From the NCBI GenBank assembly GCA_964573545.1, contig CAZNJQ010000017.1:1-13844 (forward strand): 13,844 nt of DNA, written 5' to 3'. This DNA is from an uncultured Candidatus Saccharibacteria bacterium. Lineage in GTDB: Bacteria; Patescibacteriota; Minisyncoccia; Phycocordibacterales; UBA2135. The translations under genes and the position numbers were made by a program. Below, one piece after another: positions 3,173-13,725 of the stretch (positions are counted from its first letter, which is position 1; every line of letters starts with the position of its first letter). The notes below the pieces were generated by a model. It made no database searches and had not been told where the DNA came from. It worked only from the letters and a program-made list of their open reading frames with translations.

Positions 3173-3259
3173 GCGCGGGTGGCGAAATTGGTAGACGCAC
3201 TACCTTGAGGTGGTAGCGGAGGCAACTCCATGGAGGTTCAAATCCTCTCCCGCGCACCA
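3173..3259 (+). tRNA. tRNA-Leu (anticodon GAG), long variable arm, CCA encoded
   Basis: Acceptor GCGCGGG/CCCGCGC, anticodon stem CTACC/GGTAG with loop TTGAGGT, long variable arm CGGAGGCAACTCCAT, T arm GGAGG-TTCAAAT-CCTCT. Confidence 0.9.
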
Positions 3260-4475: not shown

Positions 4476-6389
4476 TTGTGTATCGTGGCAGATACGATAC
4501 TGAATACAGGCAAAGGCGAGGATTCTAAGGAATTTGAAAAAATCATAAAAGAAATTAAGGAGCTTGAAGATATCGTAGGGAAGGGCGAACACACGCCGGA
4601 AGAGAAAGAACGTATAGCGGTGCGGGTAAAAGAGCTACGAGATTCCGTTGTAGAGCTCGAAAGAATGCGGAAGCAGGACATGATACGTGCTGCGCAGGAT
4701 GTGCAGGAACTCGGGGGGGAGATGGCAGAGCAAGAGACGTTGATTGCGGATCTGGTGACGCGGCTTGCCGCACTGCAATCACAAAACCCCCATGGCTATG
4801 CCACGTTCGTGCGATTTATCGGCATGGAGAAGCCCGACCCTAACGCGAAAGAGCTGCCGGTCATCGAGGTTCGAGGGAATGACGGCAAACTTGCTCAGGT
4901 GTCCTTTTTGGTTAAAGAGGTTGACCCGAAGACGCTCAAATATGGACAACTGCTTATCGCCTCATGCGCAAGTGGGCCGAACCACATCATCGGAGTATCC
5001 GATGGATTCTCTGCCGACGGGAGCGAAGCGGTTGTCCGCGAACTTCTGGGAAGCGACAGAGAGGGCGTTCGTGTGCTGGTAACTATCGGCAGAGAGGATT
5101 CTGCCGAGAAAATAGTTGTCAGGCTCGCGTCAGGGGTCTTACAGGAATCTGTCGTCGAAGGCAGCCGCGTGCTTGTGGATGCGGATGCGAAACTTGTTTT
5201 TGAAGTTTTGCCGCCACAGAAGAGCACTGCGTATGTCGTAAGCGAAATGCCCTCAGTCACCTTTAAGGATATCGGCGGACACGATAGTCTCATCGCCGAG
5301 ATCGACCAAAAGATCGCATGGCCGATTTTGTATCCTGAGGTGTATGAAAAATTGGGGTTACCCGACGCAAAAGGATTCTGTCTTGAGGGTCCTCCTGGTG
5401 TCGGCAAGACGATGCTTGTGAAAGCGATCTTGAACCGTCTCTCGGAGCTCCTCGAGAAAAAGCACGGCGTGCCGGTTCACGGCCATTTCTTTTCGGTAGC
5501 GGGCCCCGAATTCCAGGTTAAGTGGGTTGGCGACACCGAGGAGAGAATGCGTAATCTGTTTAAAACCGCAAAAGAGGCGGCATCGCCGACTTCTCCCGCC
5601 ATTATATTTATTGACGAGGCGGAGTCGATTTTTCCGATTCGCGGATCAGGTATTTCGTCCGATACCGAGAAGACGAACGTTCCACAGTTCACGGCGCTTA
5701 TGGACGGCCTCACGAACCGTGGCAACGTCATCGTCATTTTGGCGACGAACAGAGTCGACCTTATGGACGGAGCGGTTATCCGCCCCGGCCGGTGCGACAA
5801 AAAAATATCCGTCTTGCGTCCCAACAAAGAGGCGGCGCGCGATATCTTCAAAAAATATCTTCTTCCGGGACACGTGCATCCAAAATATCTGGAACACTCG
5901 ATCTATGTTCCGAAAGACAGGAATGGAAGGCCGCGTCGCGGCGATGGAGGGAAAAAGATCGAACTACGACTTGATCGTAGCTCGACAAAGGCGGCGAATT
6001 ACTTGATCAGCGAGGCCGTCCGGAGAATGTATGACGAGCACATCAAAGAAAATCAATTTTTGTCCGTGAAATTTAAGGGCGAGAAAGAATGGACGCACCT
6101 CAGATACGGCGACTTTGCGAGTGGTGCCTTGATTGCGAATATCGTGGACCGCGCGAAGCATTATGCCGCGGCGCGCGTTATAACCACAGCTGAGTCAAAA
6201 GACAAAGCCTTGGGGGTCGAGAAAAAAGACCTCATGCGGGCGATCGAAGAAGTCTTCAGCGAGTTGCGTGCTCCGCAGACGCTGGGATTCCACGATTGGC
6301 TTGCGATCGAAGGCATCGGAAGAGGGAAACGCGTCGAAGATTACAAATTTATACCCGGCTGTGATACAATCGCCGAAGAAGACGATTAA
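4476..6389 (+). CDS. Mpa/ARC-type AAA+ ATPase (coiled coil, double OB, AAA module)
   Basis: N-terminal heptad-rich segment and an OB-like region. Walker A is GPPGVGKT and Walker B is IIFIDEAES. SSDTEKTNVPQFTALMDG, ATNRVDLMDGAVIRPGRCD and FASGALIANIVDRAK are collinear with mycobacterial Mpa. There is no in-frame ATG near the 5' end, so the start is TTG 4476 or, with better SD spacing, GTG 4485. The C-terminus is ...IPGCDTIAEEDD. Confidence 0.9.
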   Translation: MCIVADTILNTGKGEDSKEFEKIIKEIKELEDIVGKGEHTPEEKERIAVRVKELRDSVVELERMRKQDMIRAAQDVQELGGEMAEQETLIADLVTRLAALQSQNPHGYATFVRFIGMEKPDPNAKELPVIEVRGNDGKLAQVSFLVKEVDPKTLKYGQLLIASCASGPNHIIGVSDGFSADGSEAVVRELLGSDREGVRVLVTIGREDSAEKIVVRLASGVLQESVVEGSRVLVDADAKLVFEVLPPQKSTAYVVSEMPSVTFKDIGGHDSLIAEIDQKIAWPILYPEVYEKLGLPDAKGFCLEGPPGVGKTMLVKAILNRLSELLEKKHGVPVHGHFFSVAGPEFQVKWVGDTEERMRNLFKTAKEAASPTSPAIIFIDEAESIFPIRGSGISSDTEKTNVPQFTALMDGLTNRGNVIVILATNRVDLMDGAVIRPGRCDKKISVLRPNKEAARDIFKKYLLPGHVHPKYLEHSIYVPKDRNGRPRRGDGGKKIELRLDRSSTKAANYLISEAVRRMYDEHIKENQFLSVKFKGEKEWTHLRYGDFASGALIANIVDRAKHYAAARVITTAESKDKALGVEKKDLMRAIEEVFSELRAPQTLGFHDWLAIEGIGRGKRVEDYKFIPGCDTIAEEDD

Positions 6390-6410
6390 GTCACGGCCCC
6401 TTGAAAGAAA

Positions 6411-6440
6411 AACCCGCTTATGCAAGCGGGTTTTATTCTT
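6411..6440 (+). terminator. Rho-independent terminator after the ARC ATPase gene
   Basis: aacccgctt-atgc-aagcgggtt followed by ttattctt. Confidence 0.7.
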
Positions 6441-6542
6441 GGTGGCGGAGGCGGAGGCGGAATCACATTCCTGCTTTCTCTCTGCGAATCAAGATCCGGT
6501 ACTTACGCACGTGAGTACCCCTGTGGCTGGACGGAGGGAGCA

Positions 6543-8267
6543 ATGGACAGTCAATCAAAACCGAAAATAATCCTCGGCGCTGAGACTGAATATGGGATAT
6601 TCCTTGACCACAACGAAGAACGAATTCTCCCGGATATGGAATTGTTCTGTATAGAACGCATGCTTGACGAATGCGGACGGTCGTACGTCTCGTTCGGCGG
6701 AGTGCGAGATGTGATCCGGAACATGAAAGAGCACTCTCGTATTGAAGAAGAAGCGTCAGAGCGCAGGCGAATGTTCACCGAAACCGTTCAAAGCACGTTG
6801 GAGCGTTCCATTTCGAGCTCAAGAGCATCAAAGCAGCGCTCCGGCGAAAGCGGCATTAAAATTTCAAATGGCGCTCGGTTTTATCGTGACATGAGCCATC
6901 CGGAATATTCAACTCCGGAAACGACGAACCCATACGATATCGTGGTCGCGGAGCGCGCAGGAGACAAGATCGTTGAAGAGTGCAGGGCACGTGTGGAAGA
7001 TACGGTCAGGAAAGAATACGCGACCGCGTCTCTTTTTATCCACAAAAACAACAGTGATGGTCGCGAGACGAGCTACGGCGGACATGAAAATTATTCCGTC
7101 ACACTTGATGTTTTTAAGGCCGTCATGAATGACGGACGAGAGTGCAACGGGGAGCGCCGCGGGCGCGGGAGTAGGACGCATACGGTCGGGATGATGACGG
7201 AACTTATTTTCCTCTTCTTCGTCGCTCGTCAGATCGTTATCGGTTCAGGCAAGGTTGGCTCCGAATATGGTCCCGATGTGCCGTACCAAATTTCGCAACG
7301 GAGCGATTTTTTCTCCCGGCGATTCAGTTGGGTTACGACGCACGATAGGGGTATCATAAATCTTCGCAATATCCCCTACGCGGGCGATGCGTTTCTGAGA
7401 CGCTTTCATGTGATCCTTGGGGACAGTAATATGTCGGAGCTCTCGATATACCTCAAGCACGGGATTACGGGCATCTTCTTTATGATGCTGAACACCGGCT
7501 TTTTCAAAGAGCAATGCGGCGACATATTTTCTCCGCTTGCTGATCCGGTACGGGCGCTTCATACTGTGTCTCGCGATCTCTCACTTGAGCGGAAGCTGCC
7601 TCTCCTGGATGGGCGGCGGATGAGCGCGCTTGAGATTATGAAACTTTTCGCTGAGTGTGCGACGAAATTCTTATCGCTCCACGAATTACCCGCCGTATGG
7701 ACTGACGTCGTTCACAAATGGGACGGGGTTCTGGAGGGCCTTGCGGGAGAGCGGCACAAACACCCGCTTTCACGGTCGCTTGATTGGGTCGCGAAGGAGC
7801 GGCTTATCAACGCCGTTGTTCGCCAGAGAGAGGTTGATCCGCTAAGCAAGGAGTGCGCGTCGGTTGCGCTTGAATACCATAATTTGAATCCCGAGCAAGG
7901 CATCTTTTATCGTCTTGAAAAACGAGGCGATATACTGCGCCTTTCAGATGACGCCGATGTAGAGCGGGCACTCACAGAAGCTCCTCGCGACACGCGGGCA
8001 TGGTTCCGTTCAGAACTTATCAAGCGGTATCGCGATCATATAGAAAGCATTGGATGGAAGTCGGTTAAATTCATGACCAAGAAATTTTTCGCCGTCATTG
8101 AGTTTCCAAATCCGCTCTGGGGAGGCCCAAGGGACGCCGAAGAGCTTTTGCGCAACAATCCGCCGCTCCATGTTCTCATTCTGCGGTTATTGTCGCTAGA
8201 TGCGGAGGATGTTGTTGTCTCGTTGTATCAGAGACACGGGTATACGGAAGGAGAGAATGATGCGTGA
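6543..8267 (+). CDS. Dop/PafA-family protein, paralogue 1 (tentatively Dop-like depupylase)
   Basis: Family motifs GAETEYGI, NGARFYRDMSHPEYSTPE, SYGGHENYS, FVARQIVIGSGKVG, RFHVILGDSNMSE and APRDTRAWFR. Start set at the ATG at 6543, behind GGAGGGAG. The ~95-aa spacer between ETEYG and NGAR resembles the Dop-specific loop region. The Dop versus PafA assignment is inference. Confidence 0.85.
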   Translation: MDSQSKPKIILGAETEYGIFLDHNEERILPDMELFCIERMLDECGRSYVSFGGVRDVIRNMKEHSRIEEEASERRRMFTETVQSTLERSISSSRASKQRSGESGIKISNGARFYRDMSHPEYSTPETTNPYDIVVAERAGDKIVEECRARVEDTVRKEYATASLFIHKNNSDGRETSYGGHENYSVTLDVFKAVMNDGRECNGERRGRGSRTHTVGMMTELIFLFFVARQIVIGSGKVGSEYGPDVPYQISQRSDFFSRRFSWVTTHDRGIINLRNIPYAGDAFLRRFHVILGDSNMSELSIYLKHGITGIFFMMLNTGFFKEQCGDIFSPLADPVRALHTVSRDLSLERKLPLLDGRRMSALEIMKLFAECATKFLSLHELPAVWTDVVHKWDGVLEGLAGERHKHPLSRSLDWVAKERLINAVVRQREVDPLSKECASVALEYHNLNPEQGIFYRLEKRGDILRLSDDADVERALTEAPRDTRAWFRSELIKRYRDHIESIGWKSVKFMTKKFFAVIEFPNPLWGGPRDAEELLRNNPPLHVLILRLLSLDAEDVVVSLYQRHGYTEGENDA

Positions 8268-9795
8268 CCGGGTGATGGGTATAGAAAATGAGTTCGGTGC
8301 TGTTATTGAGTCCCCAGACGGCAGTTTTGATTATCTGCCGACAGACGGTCCATATGACACCCTGGTTGTAGGTGAGACTCTTAATATGCAACTTGAGAAA
8401 CAGAGAGACAAACTGGGATTCATGAGAATGAAAAACCGACTCTGGTTCCCGAACGGGGGATGCCTTTACATCGACCAGGGGCACTTCGAATATGCTTCTC
8501 CGGAATGCAGGCGAGTGCGAGACATCGTCGCGTATAGCCGAGCCGGGGAAGCTCTTGCAGAGAAAGTCGCTTCAGAGAGATTTTATTCCGGCAGCAGATT
8601 CCGGCTTATCAAGAACAATGTTGCGCTGAGCGCCGCTACAGGAATGACCGAGCCTGTTAAGACCAAATATGTCACGTTCGGCGCCCATGAAAACTACTTG
8701 TTCTTCGAGAATGGAGAGAGCGGGCTTTTTTCTTCCGGCCCCGAGTCCGAGATAAAACAGGGGAATTACTTCCGGGCGTTCATGGCGTTTTTGGTGACCC
8801 GCCAGATCATTGACGGCGCGGGGCGATGGATCGATGAGCCGAAGAATGCGTACATATTCTCTCAGCGTGCTTTATTCATCGAAAAGGAGTTCGAGATGGG
8901 CACTACGGGCGCGCGGTCTATCATAAACAAGCGGTCTGAGCACCACATTGATGACGGCTCACTTGATCCCCCAGAGCACCTGAAAGGGATGAAACGACTA
9001 CACCTTATCTTGGGAGACGCGAACATCCTCGATGCGGCGTTGTTCCTTAAAATCGGGACAACAAAGCTCGTGCTATCGCTTCTCGAAGAAGGGAAAATGC
9101 CGAATGTGAAAATGCGAGACCCTGTGAAAGCGAACCGCGATGTATCGCTCGTCTACAGTCCAACAACGCCGTGTATTGAGCTTGAAGACGGGACAATGGT
9201 GAGTGCATTCTATGTGCAATCGGCGTTTTACGAGAAGGCGCGGCATTATCTTTCGCACACGTGTTTTGAATCCGAGGAGAGCGAAGCGGAAGCAAAGGAA
9301 ATACTCTCTCTGTGGGAGCGTGCGCTTAAGGCGCTTGAGAGCACCGATATGGAATGGATGGTCGGACGACTTGACCATGTGACGAAGAACTTTATTGCGC
9401 AGCAGGAAATAAAAAGACAGAGGCGAGAAAACCCTCCTGTCTTCGAGGAAGCGGTCGTAGCGGCCATTGAAATCCAGTACCACGAGCTTGGCGACGACGC
9501 GTTATCGTCCAAAATGCGGGCGAAATGGAGCAGTCGGTGTATTGTGACCGACGAAGAAGTGCTCCGCGCTATCGAGAACCCACCCCCCGACACGCGCGCA
9601 TGCGCACGCGGCTTGATCGTCCGGGCATATCTTGAAAAGAAAATTCCGCTTCAGGATGTCGATTGGAGCAAGATTCAGATCGGCACAAGCCCGATCGGGT
9701 CGGTAAGCGGCGCGCAGATGTACCCGGTGTATCAGTCTCCGGACCCACTTATCGCACGGCCTTCGTGGTTATATGAATTTTGTCCCGGCATGTAG
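8257..9795 (+). CDS. Dop/PafA-family protein, paralogue 2 (tentatively PafA-like Pup ligase)
   Basis: Motifs MGIENEFG, NGGCLYIDQGHFEYASPE, FGAHENYL, FLVTRQIIDGAGR, RLHLILGDANILD and NPPPDTRACARG. ATGATG at 8257/8260 sits behind GGAAGGAG and overlaps the stop of paralogue 1 by 11 nt. Confidence 0.85.
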   Translation: MMRDRVMGIENEFGAVIESPDGSFDYLPTDGPYDTLVVGETLNMQLEKQRDKLGFMRMKNRLWFPNGGCLYIDQGHFEYASPECRRVRDIVAYSRAGEALAEKVASERFYSGSRFRLIKNNVALSAATGMTEPVKTKYVTFGAHENYLFFENGESGLFSSGPESEIKQGNYFRAFMAFLVTRQIIDGAGRWIDEPKNAYIFSQRALFIEKEFEMGTTGARSIINKRSEHHIDDGSLDPPEHLKGMKRLHLILGDANILDAALFLKIGTTKLVLSLLEEGKMPNVKMRDPVKANRDVSLVYSPTTPCIELEDGTMVSAFYVQSAFYEKARHYLSHTCFESEESEAEAKEILSLWERALKALESTDMEWMVGRLDHVTKNFIAQQEIKRQRRENPPVFEEAVVAAIEIQYHELGDDALSSKMRAKWSSRCIVTDEEVLRAIENPPPDTRACARGLIVRAYLEKKIPLQDVDWSKIQIGTSPIGSVSGAQMYPVYQSPDPLIARPSWLYEFCPGM

Positions 9796-9807
9796 CACGC
9801 AAAGATG

Positions 9808-9822
9808 CGGTATGGTATCGTA
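9808..9822 (+). promoter_or_regulatory. Second exact copy of the 15-mer cggtatggtatcgta (candidate extended -10)
   Basis: Identical to 2586-2600. Located between the pafA-like stop (9795) and the pup-like ATG (9855). Confidence 0.35.
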
Positions 9823-9854
9823 ACGGCAGAGAAGGCAGGTTGCGGAAGTAAAAG

Positions 9855-10031
9855 ATGACCTCGAAGAAAACATCGCCCCAAAAGCCGAACCCGAAAGGGA
9901 AAGGAAAAAAGGGGGCGTCCGGTAAAGACACGAAAGACGACACTCTCGATATTTCCGGGCTTGTCGACACGGCATCGTCTGAACGCGCAAAGAAACTTGC
10001 CGAGAAGTACAAACAAAAAGGTGGAGAATGA
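9855..10031 (+). CDS. Pup/UBact-like small modifier protein (58 aa), not in the supplied ORF track
   Basis: Hand translation: MTSKKTSPQKPNPKGKGKKGASGKDTKDDTLDISGLVDTASSERAKKLAEKYKQKGGE-stop. The C-terminal YKQKGGE parallels mycobacterial Pup ...YVQKGGQ. It has an SD-like GGAAG upstream and a terminator directly downstream, and it follows two Dop/PafA genes. Confidence 0.75.
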   Translation: MTSKKTSPQKPNPKGKGKKGASGKDTKDDTLDISGLVDTASSERAKKLAEKYKQKGGE

Positions 10032-10034
10032 CCC

Positions 10035-10066
10035 AAAGCCGCTCGCTTGATTTGAGCGGCTTTTTT
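10035..10066 (+). terminator. Rho-independent terminator after the pup-like ORF
   Basis: aaagccgctc-gcttgattt-gagcggcttt followed by ttt. Confidence 0.75.
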
Positions 10067-10112
10067 CATTACCCTTGTTTTAGATGTTCTCTGAAACGGA
10101 AGGCTGCAGACG

Positions 10113-12668
10113 ATGTCTCTGCAAGGCACCAAAATCGGCTTTGAGGATGCTCGCCGAGTATGCGAAGAAGAGCTTTGCGCAATGCCCGCTTCCTCCGGAG
10201 AGGAAGATTCTTCCCAGCGGGCGGCAACGAGTTCATTTTTCGGAGTCAGCCAGGAGCGTTTTCTAAGCGCTCTCTCTGTTGCCATCGAGAGCAATGACCA
10301 GTTCGCAAATGTGTTTGTTTCCGGAATCTCAGGACCGGGCGGACTTGAAGCTGTTGAATGGCATGTCTCACGCATGGTTCGGGAACGGGAAAACATCGGC
10401 GACAAAAAACCCGCTCCGAATGACTGGGTATATGTGTACAATTTCAAGAACCCCCGCTCTCCCGTTTCGATTCCTCTCACTAAAGGTAATGCGAGAGTAT
10501 TTCAAAAAAAGATCGGGCTCTTACTCAAGAAATTACGCCAGCTCATTCCGGAGGCGCTCACGAGCGATACGGTCCTCGCGAAAGACAACGCTTTGTATGG
10601 CCAGTACGAGGGATGGTTTGATGCGGAAAAGGAGGCGATTGCGAGGCGCGCATTGGAGCTTGGACTTGAGATGAAAACTGCCCAGTCGCAGAAAGGAGTG
10701 GAAACTGTACGGTTCGTTCCGTCAGAGCGTACACAAGAGCCGGGCGCTGAAAAGCAGGAAGTTTCGGAAAAGAAGCCTCGCGCCTCAAAAGGAAAACTAA
10801 AAAGACACGCATCGGCGCTTCGCCAAAAACCCCAGGACGCGAATCGTGAAGGAGGGATGTCGGAAGAAGATCTTCGTCCCAAACTCACAGAGCTTTTTTC
10901 ACTGTGGACCGCGCTTATTCAAGAGAATACGCGGCGCATGAAACAATATTCTGAAAGCGCGGAGCATGTCAGAGAAGAGGCTGCCAAGGAAGTGATTGTC
11001 GACTTGTTTTCCAAATTGAACGTCGAGCAGAAAGATGCTTCACTCCTCGGCAATTTCATCGATGGGCTCCGCGAGCACGCGGAAGAAAACTGGGAGTTGT
11101 TCGCCGAAGAGGACCGCAAGAACAACCAACACGCGCCCTTTGGGGCGGCAATGGAACGCGATCAGTTCTTGCCATGGCGCGTGAATGTGTTCATCGACAA
11201 CAGTGGAACAGACGGTACTCCTGTCGTCGCAGAGCGCGTTTCATCGATTGCCGACCTTGTCGGCAAAGTCGAGTATCGCGGCATGATGGGAATCACATTT
11301 ACGGATCACACGATGATAGTTCCCGGCGCAGTTGCTAGGGCGAACGGCGGGTTCATCATCTTAAGCGCAGAGGAATTACTGACGGTTCCGGGTTTATGGC
11401 AGCTTCTGAAGCGGTGCATCAAAAACAACGCCAATGGTTTTGATACGATCATGTCACTTGAAGGCTACGGCACGTCTCAGATCGATCCCATTCCGATTCC
11501 TCTCGACCTTCGGTTTATCTTGTTCGGCTCAAGCAGTCTCATAAACTTCATCGCCGAACATGACCACGAATTTTACGACCTATTTCCTGTCCGGGCTGAG
11601 ATCTCTAATGTTGTCGAGTGTTCGGATACGGAAATTCGTGCGTATTGCAATTGGATGCGCGATGTTTCTCGAGAGCGCACGTTACTGCCGCTTTCGGCAG
11701 GCGCGTGCGCAGGCATGATCGAATATGCGGGACGGGTCGCGGACCACAAATATGAGCTGACGACGGATTTTTCCCACCTCGAGGGAGTACTAAAAGAGGC
11801 TCACGTGGTCGCGAAGCACGAACACGCGGAGAATATCTCGCGGGTCCATGTTCAAAAAGCGATCCATGCAAAGTTCTGGAGAGGGGATTTCATCTGCGAA
11901 CTCATGCGTAAGGGCGTTCGTGATTCACAGCGTGTCATCCATGTTTCCGGAGAATCGGTAGGGCGCATCAACGGACTTACTGTTTTGTCATACGGCGATA
12001 TCACGTTTGGTTTCCCGTGCTGCATAACAGCGGGTGTGAATGTCGGAAAGCCTGGAATTCTCAACATCGTTCGCGATGCCAAGATGAGCGGCAACCTTTT
12101 GAACAAGGCGGACGAGACGGTCCAAGGTGTCCTTAAGGGGCGGTTTGCGCAACGCTTTCCGCTTGCCCTTGAAATCTGTTTCAGTTTTGAACAGTCGTAC
12201 GGGATGATAGACGGCGACAGTGCGTCGCTTGCCGAATATTTCGTCATTACATCGCGAATTTCCGGGGTTCCCATCAAACAATCCATCGCCGTTACGGGTT
12301 CATTGAGTCTCCTCGGAGATGTTCAGCCGATTGGCGGCGTGAACGAGAAAATCGAAGGATTCTTTGACGTATGCGTTGCCTGTGGCGGCCTTTCCGGCGA
12401 GCAGGGAGTCATTATTCCCTGGCAGAACAAAGTCAACCTCATGCTTCGCGAAGATGTGGTTCAGGCGATAAAAGAAAACAAATTCCACATCTGGGCGATA
12501 CGAACGCTCGATGAGGGGATTGAGATTCTCACAGGAATGAGCGCGGGGACTTTACAACAGGAAAATGGAAGTTACCCCGACGATACGTTTAACGCGCGCG
12601 TGTGCAAGAAGATTGAAGAATACGCACGGCACGCAAAAGAGTTTTTTGAACCTTCAAAAAAAGATTAA
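10113..12668 (+). CDS. Lon-like serine protease (AAA_32-like N-region plus Lon_C/S16 domain) with degenerate ATPase motifs
   Basis: The C-terminal S16 domain has MIDGDSASLAEY (LonB/LonC-type Ser motif; Ser codon 12219-12221) and IGGVNEKIEGF (catalytic Lys). DWVYVYNFKNPRSP is typical of this Lon-like family. The Walker A position reads GISGPGGLE (no Lys-Ser/Thr) and the Walker B position reads GGFIILSAEE (no Asp). A long charged helical insertion sits in between. Confidence 0.85.
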   Translation: MSLQGTKIGFEDARRVCEEELCAMPASSGEEDSSQRAATSSFFGVSQERFLSALSVAIESNDQFANVFVSGISGPGGLEAVEWHVSRMVRERENIGDKKPAPNDWVYVYNFKNPRSPVSIPLTKGNARVFQKKIGLLLKKLRQLIPEALTSDTVLAKDNALYGQYEGWFDAEKEAIARRALELGLEMKTAQSQKGVETVRFVPSERTQEPGAEKQEVSEKKPRASKGKLKRHASALRQKPQDANREGGMSEEDLRPKLTELFSLWTALIQENTRRMKQYSESAEHVREEAAKEVIVDLFSKLNVEQKDASLLGNFIDGLREHAEENWELFAEEDRKNNQHAPFGAAMERDQFLPWRVNVFIDNSGTDGTPVVAERVSSIADLVGKVEYRGMMGITFTDHTMIVPGAVARANGGFIILSAEELLTVPGLWQLLKRCIKNNANGFDTIMSLEGYGTSQIDPIPIPLDLRFILFGSSSLINFIAEHDHEFYDLFPVRAEISNVVECSDTEIRAYCNWMRDVSRERTLLPLSAGACAGMIEYAGRVADHKYELTTDFSHLEGVLKEAHVVAKHEHAENISRVHVQKAIHAKFWRGDFICELMRKGVRDSQRVIHVSGESVGRINGLTVLSYGDITFGFPCCITAGVNVGKPGILNIVRDAKMSGNLLNKADETVQGVLKGRFAQRFPLALEICFSFEQSYGMIDGDSASLAEYFVITSRISGVPIKQSIAVTGSLSLLGDVQPIGGVNEKIEGFFDVCVACGGLSGEQGVIIPWQNKVNLMLREDVVQAIKENKFHIWAIRTLDEGIEILTGMSAGTLQQENGSYPDDTFNARVCKKIEEYARHAKEFFEPSKKD

Positions 12669-12681
12669 AACACCAAGAGAT

Positions 12682-12714
12682 AAACGCAGCCCCAAAGCTG
12701 CGTTTTTTTGTTTT
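12682..12714 (+). terminator. Rho-independent terminator after the lon-like gene
   Basis: aaacgcagc-cccaaa-gctgcgttt followed by ttttgtttt. Confidence 0.8.
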
Positions 12715-12763: not shown

Positions 12764-13461
12764 TTGTGTTCAGGAGCATGAATACCGTTTTGGACTTTAG
12801 TGAACAAAGTTCCGGAGAGAAAGAACATATAGGCGGCAACCGCCACAGAGAGTATCGGGTCGGCATGCACCCATCCGAACGCGAATGTCGCTAGCCAGGA
12901 GGCGGCGACGACGACAGAGAGCAATAGATCCGATATCACGTGCAGCGAGAATGTCGCGTGCGTATGGTTGTGTTCCTTGTTCGGAATTTTCTCGAGCAGG
13001 CGGTGTATCCACACATTGCCTGCACCGCCGATGATGGCAATCATAAGCACGAGCCAACTTTGGTTGTATACCGGTGCGCTCATGCGTTCATGCGCTTCGA
13101 CGAGCACATAGAAGGCGCCGCCGACAAGCAAGGCGATTCCTGCATACGCGAATATCTTCCGGACGCTGAGTTCCTGGGCCGTTGAACACCGCAACGCCAG
13201 GAGAGCTACGAAGAGCGAACCAATGTAAATCGCGACAAGATCCGAACTTGCATGGATCGTATCGCCGAGGAGCGTCAAGCTTTTCGAATAGATAATGAGG
13301 ACTGCTTGCTGCGCCGCAACGATCGCCCCTTGGACGAGCGACGCGATGCCATAGATTCTGGCCTCTTTTTTAATGTCGACGATTCTCGTGCCTGCGCTCG
13401 AATCGTCCGTGTGCTCGTGCCCCTCCGGATGGAGGTGGCAATGCGTGTGCGATTCGTGCAT
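12754..13461 (-). CDS. Cation diffusion facilitator (CDF) family metal exporter, membrane domain only
   Basis: Six predicted TM segments. TM2 has HASSD and TM5 has HVISD (HxxxD pairs of the CDF metal site). The N-terminus is His-rich (MHESHTHCHLHPEGHEH). Start set at the ATG at 13461, behind GGAGGA with 7-nt spacing; the track start is 13515. Confidence 0.8.
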   Translation of the reverse strand: MHESHTHCHLHPEGHEHTDDSSAGTRIVDIKKEARIYGIASLVQGAIVAAQQAVLIIYSKSLTLLGDTIHASSDLVAIYIGSLFVALLALRCSTAQELSVRKIFAYAGIALLVGGAFYVLVEAHERMSAPVYNQSWLVLMIAIIGGAGNVWIHRLLEKIPNKEHNHTHATFSLHVISDLLLSVVVAASWLATFAFGWVHADPILSVAVAAYMFFLSGTLFTKVQNGIHAPEHKPH

Positions 13462-13652
13462 CGCGCTTCCTCCAATGGTTGGTTGTGGAAAAGAATTCTG
13501 CGCGAACTCTATCATGCTTCAACGCTCTTGTCAAAATGTAGACTTTGTTGCGTAAAGTGTGCTATAACAATAAGCGACTTCAAAAGCGGATATGAAAATG
13601 TAGTGCGTCGGGATATTTTTACTTTTTCATTTTTACTTTTGAACTTTTACAC

Positions 13653-13725
13653 GGTGCCTATGGTGTAACGGTTAGCACAGCTCCCTGTGGAGGAGCCAGA
13701 CTGGGTTCGAATCCCAGTAGGCACC
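13653..13725 (+). tRNA. tRNA-His (anticodon GUG) with genomically encoded G-1
   Basis: G-1 opposite C73, acceptor GTGCCTA/TAGGCAC, D stem GTGT/GCAC, anticodon loop CTGTGGA, 4-nt variable loop, T arm CTGGG-TTCGAAT-CCCAG. CCA is not fully encoded. Confidence 0.88.

Follow-up and report, generated by a model that had tools for sequence, protein, structure and literature searches.

A Pup-like tagging locus with a LonC-type protease downstream of the tag gene in Patescibacteria

What would degrade proteins marked with a Pup-like tag when the gene behind that of the tag encodes not a proteasome subunit but a Lon-like protease? This question is raised by a locus in a 13,844-nucleotide stretch of DNA (hereafter the window; contig CAZNJQ010000017.1 of assembly GCA_964573545.1) from an uncultured bacterium labelled Candidatus Saccharibacteria. 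Five co-directional genes occupy positions 4476-12668 of its plus strand and encode, in this order, an ARC/Mpa-like AAA+ ATPase, a Dop-like and a PafA-like member of the Pup_ligase family, a 58-amino acid (aa) Pup-like protein and a LonC-type S16 protease. The known route of tag-directed proteolysis in bacteria combines Pup with the 20S proteasome and is essentially one of Actinobacteria. LonC is a widespread family with solved structures and with no known physiological partner or role. The locus described here is one of a conserved set and represents a real and apparently undescribed variant of Pup-proteasome logic, in which LonC is likely to be the degradation chamber.

In the established system, PafA ligates Pup, through its GGE end, to lysines and Dop reverses the ligation; Pup binds the coiled coil of Mpa/ARC, which then unfolds the substrate (PMC8223512). 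In the literature searched, no paper was found that connects pupylation to LonC or other Lon-like proteases, or to Patescibacteria or the Candidate Phyla Radiation (CPR), and a paper on metagenome-assembled genomes (MAGs) of Patescibacteria from Hainich groundwater makes no mention of the proteasome or of pupylation. Identical copies of the Lon and PafA-like proteins of the window are encoded on contigs from this groundwater, in a MAG named 'Patescibacteria group bacterium' by NCBI.

Conservation of the five-gene arrangement

Relatives of the locus were collected from homologues of the PafA-like protein (34-40% identity) and from a scan of one genome per GTDB species. The order ARC-Dop-PafA-Pup-Lon is found, besides the window, in the loci designated L005, L008, L009, L011, L012, L013 and L014, and a shorter arrangement, ARC-Dop-Pup-Lon without a PafA-like gene, in L098 and L099. 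The named genomes with the module are all MAGs of Patescibacteria: Parcubacteria, bins labelled 'Saccharibacteria' and Spechtbacterales. The module proteins of these relatives are only 31-46% identical to those of the window and, in an all-against-all comparison of eight five-gene loci, the module genes were the only genes common to all, the flanks being otherwise unrelated. Recurrence in nine other distinct loci with unrelated flanks means that the arrangement is no chance juxtaposition. A lack of conservation of the Lon neighbour beside pup in relatives was one of two findings named as counting against the original prediction, made from the window alone; the outcome favours the prediction, as the Lon gene follows pup in ten loci, including that of the window. 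Moreover, the pairwise distances between Lon proteins correlate with those of ARC, Dop and PafA (r 0.79-0.88) as highly as the distances of these three do among themselves, and it follows that Lon has been inherited together with them.

The association is specific to one group of LonC proteins. Metagenome matches to an alignment of the pup-linked Lon proteins were considered as possible further members of their clade, but all proved to be generic LonC (30-35% identity) and were retained as a negative control. Among 80 generic LonC loci from metagenomes (1.02 Mb), none has a homologue of Pup_ligase or ARC.

The four-gene variant spans positions 3904-10490 of L098 and 180-7057 of L099, and its tags end in QRGGE. 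The sole Pup_ligase gene of these two loci is Dop-like, with 41% identity to the Dop-like protein of the window and 25-27% to the PafA-like protein. Since there is no PafA-like gene at either locus, the ligase would be encoded elsewhere or the Dop-like protein would perform both tasks.

A few further features of the surroundings recur. A gene of the Cob_adeno_trans family lies directly after lon in L005 (8248-8805), L011 (12501-13076) and L103 (8756-9349), a locus treated below; the three copies are 58-63% identical and may represent an additional conserved neighbour. A Pfam scan of 31 flanking open reading frames (ORFs) revealed two proteins with AAA_2 and ClpB_D2-small domains, as in Clp/Hsp100-type ATPases. 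By size these were assigned to positions 545-2722 and 16078-18315 of L014; if the assignment is right, proteostasis genes flank the module there.

The tag, the tagging enzymes and the unfoldase

The Pup-like protein has the sequence MTSKKTSPQKPNPKGKGKKGASGKDTKDDTLDISGLVDTASSERAKKLAEKYKQKGGE and contains 14 Lys, 7 Gly and 6 Ser residues. As its terminal residue is already Glu (KGGE), deamidation of this tag would be unnecessary. It was not matched by the curated Pup models (PF05639 and TIGR03687), and one of its eight relatives matches these models weakly (E 0.0013 with Pfam and 0.009 with NCBIfam). A profile search of a set of 5.8 billion proteins with the 58-aa ORF retrieved only the CPR family itself, annotated as hypothetical by NCBI. 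The relationship to Pup emerges from profile comparison: when the window tag and seven relatives were aligned by hhalign to Pup of Mycobacterium tuberculosis, a probability of 77% and an E value of 2e-5 were obtained, with the last 30 columns or residues aligned and the C-termini in register. Position and C-terminus are also conserved. In ten loci the ORF lies directly 3' of the PafA-like or Dop-like gene, and the small ORFs of the relatives all end in [G/A]-[E/Q], namely GGE, GGQ, TGE, SGE, KGE or KAE. The tag of L012 (11617-11787) is the only one of the set with a terminal Gln (GQSGGQ), all others having Glu; it would therefore need deamidation by the Dop-like protein before ligation. The lysines of the window tag lie mostly in its N-terminal half, so that the tag itself could be a target of pupylation and form chains, and several relatives have an acidic instead of a Lys-rich N-terminal half.

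The tag had been described at the outset as of Pup/UBact type. UBact proteins end in R-[T/S]-G-[E/Q]. The first half of the description agrees with the KGGE end and with the alignment to Pup. The second half does not hold for the window, where the tag ends in QKGGE and the locus has no proteasome genes, the comparison being one by description.

Both presumed tagging enzymes are matched by the Pup_ligase family (PF03136), with E values of 1.5e-111 for the Dop-like and 1.5e-84 for the PafA-like protein. The former scores better with the Dop model TIGR03688 (328 bits, cutoff 492) than with the PafA model TIGR03686 (283 bits), and the latter better with TIGR03686 (233 bits, cutoff 551) than with TIGR03688 (204 bits). 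As both fall below the NCBIfam equivalog cutoffs, they are divergent relatives of Dop and PafA. In a neighbour-joining tree the CPR Dop-like proteins cluster with actinobacterial Dop, and the CPR PafA-like proteins form a separate CPR clade. An insertion of the length of the Dop loop is present in the CPR Dop-like proteins between the ETEYG strand and the NGARFY motif; at this position the CPR PafA-like proteins have a short segment and one actinobacterial PafA has none. The Dop-like gene probably starts at ATG 6543, since its homologues align from Met42 of the longer ORF and GGAGGG lies just upstream. The start adopted for the PafA-like gene, 8257, is that of the gene call on the identical ENA contig; it overlaps the Dop-like stop by 11 nucleotides, which suggests translational coupling.

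Pup_ligase genes also occur in other settings. Seven tandem PafA-like paralogues (465-489 aa) lie beside dnaJ, dnaK, grpE and hrcA in L006 (3491-14610, GCA_030697755.1) and in L007, and no ARC, Dop-like or Lon gene was found within 10 kb of them. L007 shares the sequencing run SRR13727529 with L100, an ARC-Dop-Pup-Lon locus without PafA; according to NCBI they belong to separate MAGs. A Pup_ligase-family protein (P0151), 27% identical to the PafA-like protein of the window, is annotated in a MAG of Candidatus Pacearchaeota, a DPANN archaeon.

The first gene of the locus encodes an AAA+ protein (Pfam AAA, 1.5e-32) with a Prot_ATP_ID_OB_C domain (2.7e-6). Its top NCBIfam model is that of the Pup-dependent ATPase, TIGR03689 (pup_AAA), at 315 bits, under the equivalog cutoff of 505 bits. 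Residues 175-620 align to the Mpa structure 5kwa (PDB, E 1.4e-69). An OB domain precedes the AAA module, in which Walker A (GPPGVGKT), Walker B (IIFIDEA), the pore loop (KWVG) and RPGR are intact, and the N-terminal segment of about 100 aa is charged and helix-prone in all eight aligned orthologues. In Mpa, a C-terminal GQYL tail is the element that docks the ATPase onto the 20S core (PMC8223512). Such a GQYL/HbYX motif was said in the original prediction to be missing here. Indeed, it was found neither in the window protein, whose acidic tail reads ...TIAEEDD, nor in any of the eight aligned orthologues.

The LonC-type protease and its genomic contexts

The product of the fifth gene is a LonC-type protein. 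Its best PDB matches are MtaLonC and TTC1975 (4fwd, E 1.6e-65), and its AlphaFold2 model (pLDDT 84.8) retrieves full-length LonC (8k8v) as the top Foldseek match (E 5.9e-49, TM 0.79). The helical-hairpin insertion typical of LonC is located at about residues 126-300 (PF20437, 2.9e-10; modelled helices 126-182 and 251-300). No transmembrane segment such as that of LonB was found, the maximum KD19 hydropathy being 1.37. The catalytic dyad, Ser703 (GDSAS) and Lys746 (GGVNEK), is kept; neither the clade nor the 118 generic LonC proteins compared show any variation in it. LonC proteins form a hexameric chamber without ATPase activity, whose substrates must be unfolded, as established for MtaLonC and TTC1975; their discoverers likened them to the 20S core particle (PMC3391209). 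LonC is not known to have a partner unfoldase, and its helical-hairpin extension serves in substrate recognition (PMC13069640). By analogy, the window protein may be expected to degrade unfolded substrates independently of ATP.

The prediction had stated that the Walker A and B positions look non-functional. They are indeed degenerate: the Walker A position reads GISGPGGLE, without Lys or Thr, and the Walker B position FIILSAEE, without an Asp-Glu pair at the canonical place. The claim needs to be qualified, as degeneracy is a general trait of LonC and only the complete loss of the P-loop is specific to the clade. Generic LonC has G-[TS]-G-[KR] at Walker A, the Gly being present in 118 of 118 proteins and the final residue being Lys in 47 and Arg in 71. 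This agrees with the nucleotide binding reported for MtaLonC (PMC3391209). The pup-linked proteins have GPGG, GVGG, GPAG, GQAG, GSAG, GGES or GPTV instead. In a neighbour-joining tree of 125 LonC proteins (seven intact pup-linked ones and 118 from the search of 5.8 billion proteins) the pup-linked proteins form an exclusive clade, with a bootstrap support of 100/100 against 59 generic LonC proteins. The picture was concordant when 1.84 billion representatives were searched exhaustively with phmmer, the top 13 matches all lacking the P-loop and all having GDSA. The P-loop-less side of the LonC tree comprises about 25-30 representative clusters.

Members of this clade are also found in other company. 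In L009 (1320-14284) the five genes are preceded by three more, giving the order PrkA-DUF444-SpoVR-ARC-Dop-PafA-Pup-Lon, and in L098 (170-10490) a PrkA-DUF444(YeaH)-SpoVR(YcgB) operon is located upstream of ARC in divergent orientation. A quite different set accompanies a P-loop-less member of the clade (P0166) in L104 (1418-9790), as well as in L105 and L106. Upstream of lon, the L104 set encodes an AAA ATPase (685 aa), a 622-aa protein without an assigned family, a ThiF/E1-like protein (214 aa), a 226-aa protein with the JAMM motif HSHx7SxxD (PADLOC JAB, E 0.0019) and a 95-aa candidate ubiquitin-like protein (Ubl) ending in VGGVL. A terminator and a minus-strand tRNA-Ile(tat) gene separate this set from lon. 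L104 may be viewed as a parallel case, in which the same Lon clade lies beside an AAA, JAB, E1-like and Ubl set, and to that extent it supports a link between these proteases and protein tagging.

The features of the window locus are listed in Table 1. All five genes of the initial description were found on the plus strand where it had placed them, and the hairpins that it had reported after the ARC gene and after pup are real; a third follows lon. The flanking genes are of the housekeeping type: uppS, a rluD-like pseudouridine synthase gene, rplS, murI, three tRNA genes (742-814, 3173-3256 and 13654-13725) and a CDF transporter gene. A plus-strand ORF of 138 codons (13252-13668) overlaps the minus-strand CDF transporter gene, has no family match and is probably not a gene. 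A role in anti-phage defence was considered and rejected, as PADLOC gave no match for the Lon, Dop-like and PafA-like proteins and only generic AAA matches for ARC, and the flanks are housekeeping genes.

Table 1. Genes and terminator-like hairpins of the five-gene locus in the window
Feature	Position	Strand	Remarks
ARC/Mpa-like AAA+ unfoldase	4476-6389	+	637 aa from TTG 4476
Terminator-like hairpin, weak T tail	6409-6434	+	Inside the 153-nucleotide ARC-Dop spacer
Dop-like Pup_ligase paralogue, predicted depupylase/deamidase	6543-8267	+	ORF opens at 6420
PafA-like Pup_ligase paralogue, predicted Pup ligase	8257-9795	+	ORF from 8200
Pup-like tag, Lys-rich, low-complexity	9855-10031	+	58 aa; C-terminus YKQKGGE
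Intrinsic-terminator-like hairpin and T run	10035-10070	+	Directly after the pup stop; hairpin 10035-10063, 11 bp with 6 GC pairs
LonC-type S16 protease, soluble	10113-12668	+	851 aa; LonC_helical, AAA_32, LonB_AAA-LID and Lon_C
Terminator-like hairpin and T run	12682-12705	+	Closes the lon transcription unit

Possible functions and known systems

On balance, it is slightly favoured here that the five genes constitute a proteolysis module specific to Patescibacteria, which would operate on the principle of the Pup-proteasome system, a LonC-type chamber taking the place of the 20S core. The PafA-like ligase would join the C-terminal Glu of the 58-aa protein to substrate lysines. The Dop-like paralogue would take the tag off and would also deamidate tags with a terminal Gln, such as that of one relative. 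A hexamer of the ARC-like AAA+ protein would bind Pup by its N-terminal helical region and unfold the tagged protein with ATP, and the LonC-like hexamer would take up the unfolded chain in its Ser-Lys chamber and degrade it there. For the chain to pass from ARC to LonC, the two hexamers could dock directly (6:6), or ARC could release the chain and LonC capture it. Conjugation activity, recognition of Pup by ARC and, above all, this hand-over are predicted from sequence. Because its AAA-like module has lost the P-loop, the LonC-like protein should be unable to unfold substrates; an ATPase-dead chamber that accepts only unfolded substrates, as described for LonC (PMC3391209), has the property that such a mechanism needs. 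Of the degradation route originally proposed, with ARC and the Lon-like protein acting together, the genetic side has thus been strengthened by linkage, co-inheritance and an exclusive P-loop-less clade, whereas the coupling of ARC to LonC is something that we infer.

Several observations weigh against this interpretation. No conserved C-terminal motif was found in the eight ARC orthologues, the tails of which are variable and mostly acidic, and in net charge (-9 to +9, without pattern) the tip loop of the Lon hairpin was not found to complement these tails. Neither the ARC tails nor the charges of the hairpin tip therefore offer a determinant of docking. In vitro, LonC acts alone on unfolded proteins (PMC3391209). 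In L097 (1575-9208) and L103 (1022-8674), Lon follows PrkA-DUF444-SpoVR and the four pup-system genes are missing, so that Lon is not strictly dependent on them; the two proteins are nested at two different places within the clade, a pattern suggesting that the pup block was lost twice, independently, and that Lon stayed behind. Two relatives have a broken lon gene, which consists of three ORFs in L005 (5661-8171) and carries an N-terminal frameshift in L011 (9716-12213); these may be pseudogenes or assembly errors in contigs of low coverage. Finally, in eight of the eight loci examined the stop codon of pup is succeeded by a GC-rich hairpin and a run of T, with differing sequences, and co-transcription of pup and lon is thus not assured. 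The hairpin fits high expression of the tag with separate or read-through expression of lon, and points to expression of lon past the hairpin or from a promoter of its own, at a level unlike that of pup. It weakens the case for an operon and leaves the conserved linkage intact.

The same hairpins, and the persistence of Lon without pup genes in L097 and L103, are what would be expected if pupylation in these bacteria were non-degradative. In that case ARC would remodel or disassemble tagged proteins, as in Corynebacterium, and Lon would be a stress-related neighbour, a lone scavenger or chaperone whose adjacency reflects shared stress regulation or an island of proteostasis genes. PrkA-DUF444-SpoVR or Clp-type ATPase genes adjoin several of the loci, LonC is autonomous in vitro and is also a chaperone (PMC3391209, PMC13069640), and Actinobacteria that have lost prcAB keep pupylation (PMC8223512). 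Such an explanation, which we regard as rather improbable, accounts poorly for a Lon gene in the same slot and orientation after pup in ten loci whose proteins are less than 46% identical and whose flanks are unrelated. Nor does it account for a linkage that is exclusive to one clade and missing from all generic LonC loci of the control, or for the loss of the nucleotide-binding loop in that clade alone, which suggests a changed mode of operation. It seems a little more doubtful still that Lon acts in trans, without docking of ARC, its hairpin recognising Pup or pupylated disordered chains. It would then degrade free Pup, conjugates or chains released by ARC, and its role would be control of tag levels or clearance of released products, with no proteasome-like holoenzyme. 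The involvement of the LonC hairpin in substrate recognition (PMC13069640), the disorder of Pup, which makes it a potential direct substrate of LonC, the lack of a conserved motif in the ARC tails and the apparently separate transcription unit of lon are all compatible with this scheme. None of the observations speaks directly against the scheme, which explains the loss of the P-loop no better than docking does and differs from the proposed ARC-LonC pathway only in the hand-over.

A conventional Pup-proteasome pathway, with prcAB elsewhere in the genome and an accessory Lon that has no part in what becomes of tagged proteins, is very unlikely. These MAGs are fragmented and the contig of the window measures only about 14 kb, which would leave room for such genes. 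The docking tail is, however, missing from ARC in eight of eight orthologues, prcB and prcA were not found at the window locus, and the Pfam calls available for loci of the relatives include no proteasome family within about 10 kb. The 31 further flanking ORFs gave no strong proteasome match among the best 25 of 34 families. Bacterial 20S proteasomes, moreover, are known essentially from Actinobacteria and a few other phyla (cf. PMC8223512 and PMC4254994).

A broader interpretation of the P-loop-less LonC clade can be put forward tentatively, with less confidence than the module itself. These proteins of Patescibacteria might be a general proteasome-analogous chamber that relies on separate AAA+ unfoldases and receives substrates from two or more unrelated tagging chemistries, Pup in ten loci and E1/JAB/Ubl in L104. 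They may also work with the PrkA-YeaH-SpoVR stress module. In this view, ultrasmall bacteria without a 20S proteasome would have assembled their own machinery for tag-dependent proteolysis on the scaffold of Lon. If ARC and LonC together degrade pupylated proteins, LonC gains a function, and the Pup tag with its ARC unfoldase would prove portable between unrelated protease chambers. Regulated ubiquitin-like proteolysis would also reach the CPR, where proteostasis is almost unstudied.

Among known systems, HslUV and ClpXP likewise combine a separate hexameric unfoldase with an ATP-independent chamber. The likeness is one of analogy only, as the protease part is not homologous, and an HslUV-like symmetry match in an ARC6:LonC6 stack is a conjecture. 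With LonC itself (MtaLonC and Thermus thermophilus TTC1975; MEROPS S16 subfamily C) the window protein shares domains, fold, Ser-Lys dyad and helical hairpin, and Walker B is degenerate in both. Generic LonC binds nucleotide (PMC3391209) and still has a Walker-A-like G-x-G-[KR], a motif lost altogether from the pup-linked clade; the generic proteins, 30-35% identical to that of the window, were never found beside pup or ARC.

The UBact system also involves Pup homologues outside Actinobacteria, and the TGE and SGE ends of some of the relatives' tags resemble UBact C-termini. UBact loci of Nitrospirota, Verrucomicrobiota and others, reportedly described by Lehmann et al. in 2017, are said to contain homologues of Mpa, Dop and PafA as well as proteasome subunit genes. 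The window locus differs from them, by description, in having no such subunit genes and in the Pup-like KGGE end of its tag.

The actinobacterial Pup-proteasome locus (mpa/arc-dop-pup-prcB-prcA-pafA) shares with that of the window an AAA+ protein with an OB domain, two Pup_ligase paralogues and a small disordered tag ending in GG[E/Q]. The logic would be common to both: a tag, an unfoldase and a self-compartmentalised ATP-independent protease. Here, prcB and prcA, the defining genes of that system, are missing from the locus and a LonC-type S16 Ser-Lys protease is encoded behind pup. The genes are arranged as arc-dop-pafA-pup-lon, ARC has no GQYL and the hosts are Patescibacteria. All four shared proteins, moreover, miss the NCBIfam equivalog cutoffs or the curated Pup models. 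The loci of Corynebacterium, Micrococcus and related proteasome-less bacteria likewise comprise ARC, Dop, Pup and PafA without 20S genes (PMC8223512). There, prcBA has not given way to a dedicated protease, and the role that has been studied best, the disassembly of ferritin, does not involve degradation. In the loci described here, by contrast, the place of prcBA is taken throughout by one particular clade of proteases.

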